Below are positions 1 to 6,000 of a stretch of DNA of 64,000 nucleotides, in pieces; within the stretch, counting starts at the first letter, position 1; the number at the start of each line of letters is the position of its first letter. Origin of the DNA: Escherichia coli. Lineage in GTDB: Bacteria > Pseudomonadota > Gammaproteobacteria > Enterobacterales > Enterobacteriaceae. Made by a program: the position numbers. The stretch lies in NCBI RefSeq assembly GCF_017348835.2, contig NZ_CP071375.1; one strand, given 5' to 3'.

Positions 1-3000
1 TGAGATAGCGGGTCGACTCTGGATTGGTTTCCCATTCGGTTAAATCGATACGCGCAACAATATCCGCATGATTGATATCAAGATAATGGGTTGGGTTGAT
101 GTCGAGATTTTCGTTAACGCGCATACTGCTCAGGTTGCTCAGGACTGCCACCAGCAGATACTCCACCGCCAGATAACGGTAGTGGCAAAACAGCACGAAT
201 CCACCGTCAGCAAAAGGATATTTCGCTAATTCGTCACGCAGGCGGCCGGTTGCCGCGCGGCTAAATGCCAGAAAGTCCTCTTCGCCCTGACGCTGTAAGC
301 GCAGCGTCTGCGCCAGTTCACTCTCTTCGCTAAACAAGCCGTAAGCTTTATTTTTGGCGCTATAGACCCGATGCAGTTCTGCCACCATCTCAACGACGGT
401 TTCTGTCGGTTCCAGCAATGAATCGCGCAACACCAGCTCAAGGTTCTGCTCATCACGCTTGATAAGCTGGTGCAGAGCAATCTGGTTGATATCCAGACTC
501 ATGATAAACTCTCCTTTAAGACCGGGCGGTATTCAACCACCGCCGGTTAAGCGACGCAATAAAAGATGGCGGTCATTTTACAGAAGGCAGCGTAACGAGA
601 ATGATTTAACGCATAAAAAAGCAGAAAAAAAACCGTTGCTACGGTAATATGTTGCCCTTTCATCAACTAACTGATTTCGATTTATGCCACAAATTTCCCG
701 CTACAGTGATGAACAGGTTGAACAATTGCTCGCAGAGCTGCTCAACGTACTGGAAAAACATAAGGCTCCGACCGACCTTTCCCTGATGGTGTTAGGCAAC
801 ATGGTCACTAACCTTATCAACACCAGCATTGCCCCGGCCCAACGCCAGGCAATTGCCAACTCTTTTGCCCGCGCCTTACAGTCCTCTATCAACGAAGAAA
901 AAGCGCACTAAGGGAAACAGATAACAGGTTATGGTAACTCATCGTCAGCGCTACCGTGAAAAAGTCTCCCAAATGGTCAGTTGGGGGCACTGGTTTGCAC
1001 TGTTCAATATTCTGCTTTCGCTCGTCATTGGCAGCCGTTACCTGTTTATCGCCGACTGGCCGACAACGCTTGCTGGTCGCATTTATTCCTACGTAAGCAT
1101 TATCGGCCATTTCAGCTTCCTGGTCTTCGCCACCTATTTGCTGATCCTCTTCCCGCTGACCTTTATCGTCGGCTCCCAGAGGCTGATGAGGTTTTTGTCC
1201 GTCATTCTGGCAACGGCGGGAATGACGCTATTACTGATCGATAGCGAAGTCTTTACTCGTTTCCATCTCCATCTTAATCCCATCGTCTGGCAACTGGTTA
1301 TTAATCCAGACGAAAATGAGATGGCGCGCGACTGGCAGCTGATGTTCATTAGCGTGCCGGTTATTTTATTGCTTGAACTGGTGTTTGCGACGTGGAGCTG
1401 GCAAAAGCTGCGCAGCCTGACGCGTCGTCGGCGCTTCGCGCGTCCGCTGGCCGCATTCTTATTTATCGCCTTTATCGCCTCGCATGTGTTGTATATCTGG
1501 GCCGATGCCAACTTCTATCGCCCGATCACCATGCAGCGCGCTAACCTGCCGCTTTCGTACCCGATGACGGCGCGACGTTTTCTTGAGAAGCATGGTCTGC
1601 TTGATGCGCAGGAGTATCAACGCCGTCTTATTGAGCAAGGTAATCCAGACGCCGTTTCCGTTCAGTATCCGTTAAGCGAACTGCGCTATCGCGATATGGG
1701 CACCGGGCAGAATGTGCTGTTGATTACTGTCGATGGCCTGAACTACTCACGCTTCGAGAAGCAGATGCCTGCGCTGGCAGGTTTTGCTGAGCAAAATATT
1801 TCGTTCACGCGCCATATGAGCTCCGGCAACACTACAGACAACGGCATCTTTGGCCTGTTCTATGGCATCTCGCCGAGCTATATGGACGGCATTCTGTCGA
1901 CCCGTACGCCTGCGGCATTAATTACTGCGCTTAATCAGCAAGGCTATCAGCTGGGGTTATTCTCATCAGATGGCTTTACCAGCCCGCTGTATCGCCAGGC
2001 ATTGTTGTCAGACTTCTCGATGCCGAGCGTACGCACCCAATCCGACGAGCAGACCGCCACGCAGTGGATCAACTGGCTGGGACGCTACGCACAAGAAGAT
2101 AACCGCTGGTTCTCGTGGGTTTCTTTCAATGGTACTAACATTGACGACAGCAATCAGCAGGCATTTGCACGGAAATATAGCCGGGCGGCAGGCAATGTCG
2201 ATGACCAGATCAACCGCGTGCTCAATGCACTGCGTGATTCTGGCAAACTGGACAATACGGTTGTAATTATCACTGCCGGTCGGGGTATTCCACTGAGCGA
2301 AGAGGAAGAAACCTTTGACTGGTCCCACGGTCATCTGCAGGTGCCATTAGTGATTCACTGGCCAGGCACGCCGGCGCAGCGTATTAATGCGCTGACTGAT
2401 CATACCGATCTGATGACGACGCTGATGCAACGCCTGCTACATGTCAGCACACCTGCCAGCGAATATTCGCAAGGTCAGGATTTGTTCAACCCTCAACGCC
2501 GTCATTACTGGGTAACCGCAGCGGATAACGATACGCTGGCAATAACCACCCCGAAAAAGACGCTGGTGCTGAACAATAACGGTAAATACCGCACTTACAA
2601 CTTACGTGGTGAAAGAGTGAAAGATGAAAAACCACAGTTAAGTTTGTTATTGCAAGTACTGACAGACGAGAAGCGTTTTATCGCTAACTGATTAATTATA
2701 AATCAGTTAGCAAAATATCTTACTTGCAATCGGTGTGGAAAACGGTAGTATTAGCAGCCACGAGTCGGCACGTAGCGCAGCCTGGTAGCGCACCGTCATG
2801 GGGTGTCGGGGGTCGGAGGTTCAAATCCTCTCGTGCCGACCAAAAATCCCAAGAAAAAACCAACCTTTACGGTTGGTTTTTTTTTATATCTGCAATTAAT
2901 TAGATAAACAGACCGCGACACATCACGGCCTGTTTATTTTCTGTTATCAGAACGTCCAGACCACTCCCGCCTGAGTATTCCACGGCGATTCTACCCCTGC

Positions 3001-6000
3001 GCCATTGCCATAGCTGACTGACAAATGACCGCTTAACGTCGGGGTAAACGATGACCTTATCCCAGCCTGATAAACGCCACGGGTTCCAGCCACATCATTA
3101 TTAAATTTGCCATCGTCATTAACTTTCACCTGGTTAGAATCGGCGTATTCCTGACGTACGGCGGCTTTCAGCCAGGGTTCCAGCGTCGTACCATTTTGCA
3201 GGTCCATGTGATAGCTTACCGCCGTTCCCGCTTCAGCGCGTAATATCCGGGTATTTCCCACATCAGCGCGCATGCCGTTTGATAACGTGTAGTCCTGACC
3301 ATCTGTGGTAAAGCCGGTAAAGGCCAGATAGGGTCTAACACTCCACAATCCGTCAACCCAACGGAACCCGCTCTCGACATGAGCACCCGCGCCGTTACTA
3401 CTGTAATCGCCAAACGCTGTTGCCCCATTACTCATCTTGCCATGGATGGTGTTGGCAAAACGATCAACTTTCACCACTCCATCAACATAGGCACCGTTCT
3501 GATGCTCCCAACCGGCATAAGCCCCCAGGGTATAGCTATCGACATTACCTTTGCCGCCGCGATCAAAACCAATATCAGAATGAGAGTAACCAAAGAACAA
3601 GCCGCGAATTGTGCTGCTTTCTTCACGGGAGAAACGGCTATCGATACCGAGCGTCAGCCCCGTCAATGTTTGCTCAAAGCCAGCTCCCGCATCAGTGGTC
3701 ACGTTGTTGCGGGTGTTAATTGCCGAACTCCACATCGCCGTATCGTAATTAACGCCTTTTACGCTACCAAGACGCTCACGCACGGTGTCCAGTTCTGCAT
3801 CAAATACCAGCGGTTGTGCTGCTGCCATGTTCAGCACATCAGTGGTTGAAGGGGTAATTTGCGCGCGATTCTCTGCGAGGCTCCAGCTATGGTTGCCATT
3901 ATCCAGCAAGGTATATTCATACGTACCGATATCAACAACGCCTCCGGCATTGCCCAACGTAAATGCAGCATCACCGCCGCCCGTTGTTACCAGTGTAAGG
4001 CTATCACCTGCTGCCGGGCTGGCCCCCGTGTCCGTCACAAATATTTTGAAATCACCTGTTGCCTGGCCAGTGACGTTAAGCTGATCGCTCTGATGATTGG
4101 CCATATCGGTACGCATATAAAAATTGCCGTTTCCCGACAGGGTATTGGTGGTCAACGTTATGAAATTTTCCGCACTTGCTGTCACAGATGAACGAGTCAC
4201 TGTCTCAGCCATCATAATCACATTTGCGCCAGACATCACAAAGTTGGCTAAGTTGAGGCGGGTGTTTTGGTTCGTCGTAGTGATATCGGCAATGATGGTC
4301 CATGCGCTATTTTCGAGCGAAACGTCCGCTTTGCTGGTATCCACGGCACCATGCGTTCTAAAAGAAGCGCCCTCAGAAACCACTACCTTACCCACCAACA
4401 TAGCAGGTGCATAATTTATTTGCGGCTTCATGACCTCAAGAATGCCATCATTCCCTCTGACTGACACGTTAACCATTGTGCCAGCCCAGACATTAGCGCG
4501 GCCATTGTTGATTACCATATTTTCAGAGATGGCTTTTGAGGAATACGTGATACTTCCATTCTGGTCTGATCGACCGAGATCATATACCGCATTTGCCTGC
4601 ACTTTCGTACCAGTATCCTTTCCCAGCGATTGCATAGTGGCATGCTCATCAAGGATAGTGTCAATGGCCTGCGTGTCCTCCATAACAATGAGCCCGGAAC
4701 CATCATCCAGTTCATAATTTTTTGACACACCATCTTTTATACTAAATTGGCCTTTACTGTTTGTACCACTCACTTCCAGCGCATTCGTTGAGACAATTAA
4801 TTTCCCGCCTGCTTTTTTATCAACGCCAGTTGCAGTCCCGCCATCCATAACCTCCAGTAAGCCGCCACTATCCACAGTGGTATTATAAGCGAAGTCATTT
4901 TCTTCAACTCGCAAACTTCCGCCGTTTTCCAACAACATATTATTAGCAATACCATTCTTGATATCGAACTGACCGAGACGGTTTGTTCCGAATACCTCCA
5001 TGGCCCGCGTGGTTGTTTTAATAGCACCGCCTGCTTTCTGATCTACCGCAAATGCAAATCCCCCCTCTTTAACCTCCAGTAGTCCTCCCTTTTCGATAGC
5101 GACAAAGACGGCCCCCCCATCTTTTTCAACGATTAAGCGCCCGCCTTTAATCGTGGGATCATTCGCTGCGCCATAAACCTGTAGCACACCATTATTGAGC
5201 GTAGTCTGGTTTGCCGCGCCACCCATTTGAACAATTTGATAACCGTCATTTAATACTGAGTATTCTGCGGCGCCATTCATTTCAATGTACTGATACCCTC
5301 CGTTAATTTCAGTATTATTACTTACACCAAATTCTTTAATATGCTGTTCTCCGCCAGGATTGATTTTCGTATTATTGGCGATCCCATAAACCAGCTGGAT
5401 ATCTTTTTCCAGGACAACACCATCAACTGTCTCACCATACTCAACTGTTGATGCCAATGCTATGGGTGAATATAACGCTGTAGCCACCAGAACAGATATT
5501 GCGGAACGACAAAGAGAAACAGAACCAGATTGATGCATTGAGCTTTCATCCTATGAAATTAATTGCTGTTAAAAGCATTGGGTACAGAAAATACCCATAG
5601 CTCCATACCCGGAGTCAGTTTTTAAAAACTGTTTAAAGAAATGCACAAGTATTGTGATTGATTTTTTAGTTGTTTTTCTTGATGAGAAGCTGATGCAAAA
5701 TTCCGTCTTTATAATGAAAATGATGCCAAAGCGAAGGACAAGGTTGTAGTTTTCACTACATGTCCATACATAAAATGGGGTAACATTCACGCGCCTGGTA
5801 GCGTTACCAACGCTACGCTCAAACATAATGATTCTAATAAAACCTCAGGAGACTACTATGCCTGAAGCAACGCCTTTTCAGGTGATGATTGTGGATGATC
5901 ATCCACTTATGCGACGCGGTGTTCGTCAATTACTGGAGCTTGATCCTGGCTTTGAAGTGGTCGCCGAAGCGGGCGACGGCGCGAGCGCTATCGATCTGGC

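Follow-up and report, generated by a model that had tools for sequence, protein, structure and literature searches.

The stretch of DNA analysed here, 64,000 nucleotides (nt) of the Escherichia coli contig NZ_CP071375.1 (assembly GCF_017348835.2; hereafter, the window), contains an unbroken copy of yejO, a gene that in the laboratory strain K-12 is a pseudogene split by the insertion sequence IS5. In the open reading frame (ORF) listing of the window, a single ATG-initiated ORF of 863 amino acids (aa) occupies 2947..5538 on the minus strand; these are the coordinates and the length given by the original prediction, an earlier reading of this DNA, and the ORF has no internal stop and no truncation relative to intact orthologues, the two findings named there as speaking against it. 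We consider it very probable that 2947-5538 is an uninterrupted chromosomal yejO allele that encodes a member of the AIDA-I/Ag43-like adhesin group of classical (type Va) autotransporters.

The identity of the gene as yejO follows from synteny and from an exact match to public proteins so named. The gene lies between proL and narP and is convergent with proL, an arrangement that is identical in K-12, O157:H7 and O104:H4, and beyond narP the minus strand carries ccmH, dsbE/ccmG and ccmF, which gives the yejM-proL-yejO-narP-ccm locus of E. coli. An identical protein is already deposited as 'autotransporter YejO [Escherichia coli]' (e.g. EIV7080878.1; 8 contigs), and at 90% identity the window protein clusters into a set of 16,859 members, represented by a sequence of the same 863-aa length. 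The yejO of the pig isolate PE164 is 1 nt and one amino acid (F433L) apart from that of the window, with 863 aa intact in both, and the O157:H7 gene is likewise annotated in RefSeq as intact at 863 aa. When window positions 2600-6000 were compared by megablast with 5426 complete E. coli genomes, 5425 of them matched, the matched region being annotated 'yejO: autotransporter YejO'; because just 7 of the 5426 reach at least 99% identity over the yejO locus, the window carries a rare allele of a common gene. No evidence that contradicts the identification was met. The intact yejO of the window is therefore a known, catalogued gene in its common form, and nothing about it is unexpected.

The original prediction stated that yejO is interrupted by an insertion sequence in K-12, and alignment to a K-12 genome (NZ_CP064682.1) agrees with this. 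The BLAST alignment is divided into two collinear blocks, window 1100-5475 and 5472-7500, that overlap by 4 bp and are separated by 1195 bp in K-12. The 1195-bp insert is an IS5 element that begins with GGAAGGTGCGAA and ends with an inverted copy of GGAAGGTGCGAA; it lies at codon 22, within the hydrophobic core of the signal peptide, and is flanked in K-12 by a 4-bp target duplication, whereas the window sequence is continuous across 5472-5475. When IS5 and one target copy were excised in silico from the K-12 sequence, an open frame of 863 aa was restored; 18 of its residues differ from those of the window protein, such that the K-12 product (b2190), encoded at the same locus, is 97.9% identical to the window protein once IS5 is removed. 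RefSeq annotates the K-12 locus as a yejO pseudogene without its N-terminus, a same-strand IS5 transposase gene and a 69-nt N-terminal remnant. With IS5 between the first 21 codons and the remainder of the gene, any K-12 product is without a signal peptide and cannot be exported. The usual target consensus of IS5 is YTAR (CTAA/CTAG type); the TTAT target at 5472-5475 fits it at only 3 of the 4 positions and is in that respect non-canonical. The published descriptions are in accord, with K-12 yejO given as a pseudogene inactivated by IS5K near the start codon (PMC11005336) and with yejO of BW25113 listed as carrying IS5 in direct orientation (PMC11677980).

Across the 5426 complete genomes, the interrupted form is confined to a small minority. 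Two probes of 80 nt each, one spanning the yejO/IS5 junction and the other the empty site, were counted when fully covered: the junction occurs in 357 genomes and the empty IS5 site in 5050, and their sum, 5407, is the number of genomes in which this part of yejO is present. Among the 40 junction matches listed, all are K-12-type laboratory strains (MG1655, C600, J53, DH5alpha, NEB 5-alpha and others). In addition, an intact 862-aa orthologue with 76% identity occupies the narP-yejM interval of a genome whose aligned locus is 86.5-89.3% identical to the window; judged from this locus identity alone, that genome appears to lie outside E. coli proper. The target duplication, the restoration of the ORF by excision, the genome counts and the distant, syntenic intact orthologue together argue that uninterrupted yejO is ancestral and the K-12 insertion derived, and thus that the window shows the ancestral state, as had been proposed.

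Intact yejO is the majority state in E. coli, not a universal one. The last 600 nt of the gene, which code for the barrel, are present in 4291 of the 5426 genomes and missing from ~21%; genomes that have the barrel and no K-12 IS5 place the intact share at ~72% of complete genomes or less, this figure being an upper bound from coverage counts. Several forms of breakage were seen. Strain E2348/69 (B2) retains nt 1-472 and 1477-1933 of the coding sequence (CDS) and has lost the barrel, and GPEC996 retains CDS nt 1-402 and 1557-1933, also a remnant without a barrel. In O104:H4, ATT replaces the start codon and there is a nonsense change, TGG789TGA; ST131 has been reported to be without yejO (PMC5654935). 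The allele of strain 114 is of a different kind, an in-frame form of 789 aa (74 aa shorter) that aligns to CDS nt 1-512 and 679-2592, with alignment breakpoints that fall within a duplicated part of the passenger (4648..5088).

The sequence-level features of a type Va autotransporter are all present in the window protein, since a signal peptide, a passenger, a linker helix, a barrel and a terminal aromatic residue were each found (Table 1). Pfam detects AIDA repeats (PF16168, 176 bits), Pertactin (PF03212, 149.8 bits, aa 438-555) and the Autotransporter beta-domain (PF03797, 154.5 bits, aa 602-841), and NCBIfam detects the autotransporter barrel TIGR01414 (373 bits) and four matches to TIGR04415, the 'O_hepto_targRPT' strand-loop-strand repeat, a heptosyltransferase target. 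The AlphaFold2 model, made from 76 homologues, reaches a mean predicted local distance difference test score (pLDDT) of 89.4; in it, an unbroken beta-solenoid spans aa 30-561 and is followed by a helix of high pLDDT (aa 563-592) and by 12 long strands (aa 600-862). The N-terminus of the model is of low pLDDT and forms a short helix over aa 11-17; in sequence, this region (MHQSGSVSLCRSAISVLVATALYSPIALA/STVEY) runs from a basic R11 through a hydrophobic core, aa 12-24, whose Kyte-Doolittle hydropathy peaks at 2.5 over aa 14-22, to A-L-A before S30, and thus has the n-region, h-region and A-x-A layout of the signal peptide that had been claimed. The claim of a terminal barrel motif is likewise borne out, by PF03797, TIGR01414, the 12 modelled strands and the C-terminal Phe: the protein ends ...AGVVWTF, with F863 as the aromatic last residue of a beta-signal. 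The claim of a repetitive passenger holds at the level of the protein, in which there are 19-aa rungs and a 74-aa duplication, and does not hold at the level of the DNA, in which Tandem Repeats Finder gave no tandem repeats in the passenger. The pertactin-like region at the end of the passenger is presumed, by analogy, to act as an autochaperone.

Table 1. Coordinates in the window of yejO, its parts and its surroundings
Feature	Position	Strand	Description
yejO CDS	2947..5538	-	863 codons + TGA stop at 2947-2949; same extent as RefSeq yejO in PE164
Predicted Sec signal peptide	5452..5538	-	aa 1-29, MHQSGSVSLCRSAISVLVATALYSPIALA; hydropathy and A-L-A motif; cleavage site inferred
Passenger beta-helix	4195..5451	-	aa 30 to ~448; AIDA-type ~19-aa rungs; AlphaFold2 pLDDT mostly >85
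Internal ~74-aa duplication	4648..5088	-	aa 151-223 vs 225-297; local alignment, score 171
Most variable YejO stretch	4189..4488	-	aa 351-450; pairwise diversity 0.22-0.25 (20 YejO variants)
Pertactin-like domain, C-terminal end of passenger	3856..4173	-	aa 456-561; PF03212; PDB hits 1dab, 7akv
Alpha-helical linker	3763..3852	-	aa 563-592; AlphaFold2 helix; expected in barrel pore
12-stranded outer-membrane beta-barrel translocator	2950..3741	-	aa 600-863; PF03797, TIGR01414, AlphaFold2 strands
Empty IS5 target site	5472..5475		ATAA on plus strand, TTAT on gene strand; CDS nt 64-67, codon 22
Divergent yejO-narP intergenic region	5539..5857		319 bp, AT-rich; presumably holds yejO promoter
Hairpin, A-run on one side, T-run on the other	2851..2885		inverted repeat, 15-nt arms, 93% complementary; between proL and yejO
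tRNA-Pro (GGG), proL	2766..2842	+	ARAGORN and Rfam tRNA; convergent with yejO
yejM (lipopolysaccharide-biosynthesis-modulating metalloenzyme)	931..2691	+	586-aa ORF; DUF3413 and Sulfatase domains; RefSeq name
narP response regulator	5858..6505	+	ORF; Response_reg and GerE domains; coordinates transferred from PE164 RefSeq; divergent from yejO

Comparison with proteins of known structure places YejO close to the self-associating adhesins. In a Foldseek search of the PDB, the passenger is nearest to Ag43 (7koh, 7ko9, 4kh3; E down to 4e-27), and Ag43 (Flu/Cah) is also the top match of the passenger by sequence (7koh, E 2.6e-37); AIDA-type rungs and a classical barrel are common to both proteins. 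The barrel is nearest in fold to BrkA (3qq2, template-modelling score 0.90 normalised to target) and then to EspP, Hbp, AIDA-I and NalP, and a sequence search of the PDB with YejO returned Ag43, Vag8, TibA, BrkA and pertactin. The likeness to Ag43 nevertheless has limits: the two share ~24-26% identity in the structural alignment, Ag43 has ~1040 aa versus 863 aa, and in our analysis of YejO there was no evidence of the phase variation or the L-shaped bend of Ag43. Because the NCBIfam equivalog scores are far below their cut-offs (142 bits versus 1200 for Ag43; 70 bits versus 1200 for AIDA-I), YejO is a relative, not a member, of the Ag43 and AIDA-I equivalogs. With the glycosylated adhesins AIDA-I and TibA it has the AIDA repeat PF16168 and TIGR04415 in common, and there is a PDB hit to TibA (4q1q); however, AIDA-I/Aah and TibA/TibC have a linked heptosyltransferase, whereas yejO is flanked by tRNA-Pro and narP, with no glycosyltransferase gene next to it. 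As Ag43 is also without one, a linked heptosyltransferase does not define the self-associating group. Among the Bordetella proteins, Vag8 aligns to YejO aa 459-860 (E 1.7e-35) and pertactin to aa 449-558; the N-terminal passenger of BrkA, Vag8 and pertactin differs from that of YejO, and the likeness is that of a family-wide translocation unit.

The established behaviour of the autotransporter family suggests how such a protein would reach the cell surface. The 29-residue signal peptide would route YejO through Sec, and the beta-barrel assembly machinery (BAM) would insert the C-terminal 12-strand barrel (aa 600-863) in the outer membrane. The passenger (aa 30-561, ~530 residues) would then cross the outer membrane, either within the barrel or beside it, leaving the linker helix (aa 563-592) in the pore, and the beta-helix would fold vectorially at the surface, starting from the conserved pertactin-like end. 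By analogy with Ag43 and AIDA-I, the displayed stalk would most likely mediate adhesion or self-association and aggregation.

Differences between alleles bear on whether this protein is maintained. The Nei-Gojobori ratio of nonsynonymous to synonymous rates (dN/dS) of the window allele is 0.136 versus K-12 and 0.147 versus O157:H7; with dN/dS at ~0.14, we conclude that YejO is under purifying selection. In the same two comparisons the ratio is 0.05-0.10 in the barrel, and the pertactin-like part has 0-1 nonsynonymous versus 13 synonymous differences, none nonsynonymous versus K-12. Among 20 YejO variants, diversity is mostly at or below 0.03 from aa 501 to 863; it is greatest in the passenger stretch listed in Table 1 and has a second peak at aa 126-150 (window ~5089-5163). 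Within the first of these patches, the comparison with K-12 gives 7 nonsynonymous and no synonymous changes in aa 401-450, and window 4146-4457 fails to align at the DNA level with the 76%-identical orthologue. The variable passenger patches could reflect diversifying selection or allele recombination; a conserved translocation unit joined to a variable exposed passenger is the usual autotransporter pattern.

Whether an intact yejO is also a functional one, as the original prediction ventured, is a further matter, and several observations weigh against it. The repeated loss or breakage of the gene (B2, O104:H4, ST131) means that yejO is dispensable in many lineages. In the open-access literature we found no demonstration of a YejO phenotype; searches on phenotype or on H-NS regulation led only to papers on IS5, surveys of gene presence and work in which ΔyejO serves as a neutral, 'wild-type-like' marker. 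The DNA upstream is AT-rich, with a G+C content of 0.376 at 5251-5750, which is typical of silenced surface-protein genes; a crude consensus scan gave no sigma-70 match on the gene strand in 5539-5857 and so did not locate the yejO promoter. Across 3,376 RNA-seq sets, K-12 yejO ranks near the bottom of all genes in detection (PMC10392735), although IS5 confounds this result. The low upstream G+C content, the lack of a gene-strand consensus match and the very low K-12 transcript all favour a gene that is intact and cryptic, mostly silent in transcription (for example, by H-NS-type silencing), with any function restricted to a special niche or, in this strain, absent. Other AIDA-like autotransporter genes of K-12 (ycgV, ypjA, yfaL) are cryptic in laboratory culture, and this speaks for the same explanation, to which we give about an even chance. 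Set against it is the dN/dS of ~0.14 across alleles at a dS of 0.07-0.08, which argues that the protein is selected and so is made somewhere; moreover, the K-12 expression and the promoter scan are subject to the limits just given, and a cryptic yejO is compatible with the gene being an intact autotransporter allele rather than exclusive of it. Sequence comparison shows intactness and purifying selection for the window gene, and only the word 'functional' exceeds the evidence.

An alternative that concerns the passenger is that it is not an adhesin and has some other surface role, such as a phage or colicin receptor, immune evasion in the manner of Vag8/BrkA-type serum resistance, or competition between bacteria. 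The C-terminal half of YejO has its nearest sequence matches in the Bordetella proteins Vag8 and BrkA, which bind regulators of complement and are not mainly adhesins, YejO scores far below the Ag43 and AIDA-I equivalog cut-offs, and the hypervariable patch at aa 351-450 would suit an antagonistic interaction. We nonetheless think this role unlikely: the best matches of the passenger in both sequence and fold are the self-associating adhesins Ag43 and TibA, and the likeness to Vag8 and BrkA is limited to the pertactin-like and barrel parts, where it is family-wide. Equally doubtful is the proposal that yejO as a whole is under antagonistic selection, with diversifying passenger patches (aa 351-450 and 126-150) in a gene that is discarded time and again by independent events: IS5 in K-12, the nonsense codon and altered start of O104:H4, and multi-kb deletions in B2/ST131-type lineages. 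If that were true, YejO would be targeted by phage, by an immune response or by a competitor, its loss would be adaptive in some niches, and the intact, rare allele of a pig-associated, nleA/nleG-carrying strain would be a useful reference. That the window gene is instead a young pseudogene, held open by inertia after inactivation by missense change or promoter loss, is very improbable: independent losses in several lineages, the ~21% of complete genomes without the barrel-coding 600 nt and the 7 nonsynonymous versus 0 synonymous differences from K-12 in aa 401-450 speak for it, but the barrel and pertactin-like parts are nearly invariant in protein, overall dN/dS is 0.14, F863 is kept among the conserved family-alignment columns checked, the 863-aa length is maintained in the 16,859-sequence cluster, and the variable stretch sits in the surface-exposed passenger, where autotransporters usually vary.

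With the window gene taken as an intact autotransporter allele, the K-12 pseudogene is an accident of the laboratory lineage: most E. coli, including the strain of the window, keep an intact AIDA/Ag43-like autotransporter at this locus, and K-12 under-represents the surface-protein repertoire of the species. The exact lesion (IS5, codon 22, signal peptide) can be used in restoring or expressing YejO, and an adhesin screen could reasonably start from the intact allele. Beyond such bookkeeping, the significance of an intact yejO in the window is small.

Around the gene, there is a possible Shine-Dalgarno AGGA 10 nt before the yejO ATG, and the hairpin between proL and yejO is, from its sequence, probably a bidirectional intrinsic terminator for both. 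No regulatory RNA was found near yejO, as Rfam gave only the tRNA on window 1-8000. The intergenic region also contains an 85-aa ORF on the minus strand (5569-5826), which has no Pfam hit and is absent from the RefSeq annotation, and we regard it as spurious. A 23-nt imperfect inverted repeat, 2884-2906/5552-5574 (78% complementary, with GCAATTAATT in common), brackets the yejO ORF almost exactly; it was considered as a cassette boundary and rejected as a probable product of chance in AT-rich flanks. On the proL side, alignment with the window stops at the proL 3' end (2828-2842) in some genomes, O157:H7 ones among them, and phage terminase and major capsid genes there adjoin yejO. A gtrIC prophage remnant has been described between tRNA-Pro and yejO in S. 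flexneri 1c (PMC4924310). In the window, the site at 2828-2842 is unoccupied.

The strain context of the window comes from its more distant part, in which positions 30000-54000 match two isolates from pigs, PE164 and F2_81, at 100% identity. By identity to the PE164 annotation, 48784-50025 encodes the type III effector NleA (413 aa) and 50719-51366 an NleG-family effector; this nleA/nleG content suggests an attaching-effacing-type pig E. coli. The NleG-family ORF is followed, to ~54000, by a decayed prophage with tail fibre, Lom, lysozyme and holin fragments. At ~35052-37000, atoS and the next regulator gene are annotated as partial pseudogenes in PE164, an apparent atoS/atoC deletion-fusion, and at 43555-48174 the alpha-2-macroglobulin gene (yfaS) has an internal stop, and the window has ORFs of 1247 aa and 282 aa there. 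An IS3-family element (~1.3 kb; 21684-22897 of the PE164 locus) lies in the prophage tail-fibre gene of PE164, at the place corresponding to ~51600-52900; the window is without it, and it is the sole large difference between PE164 and the window over these 24 kb.

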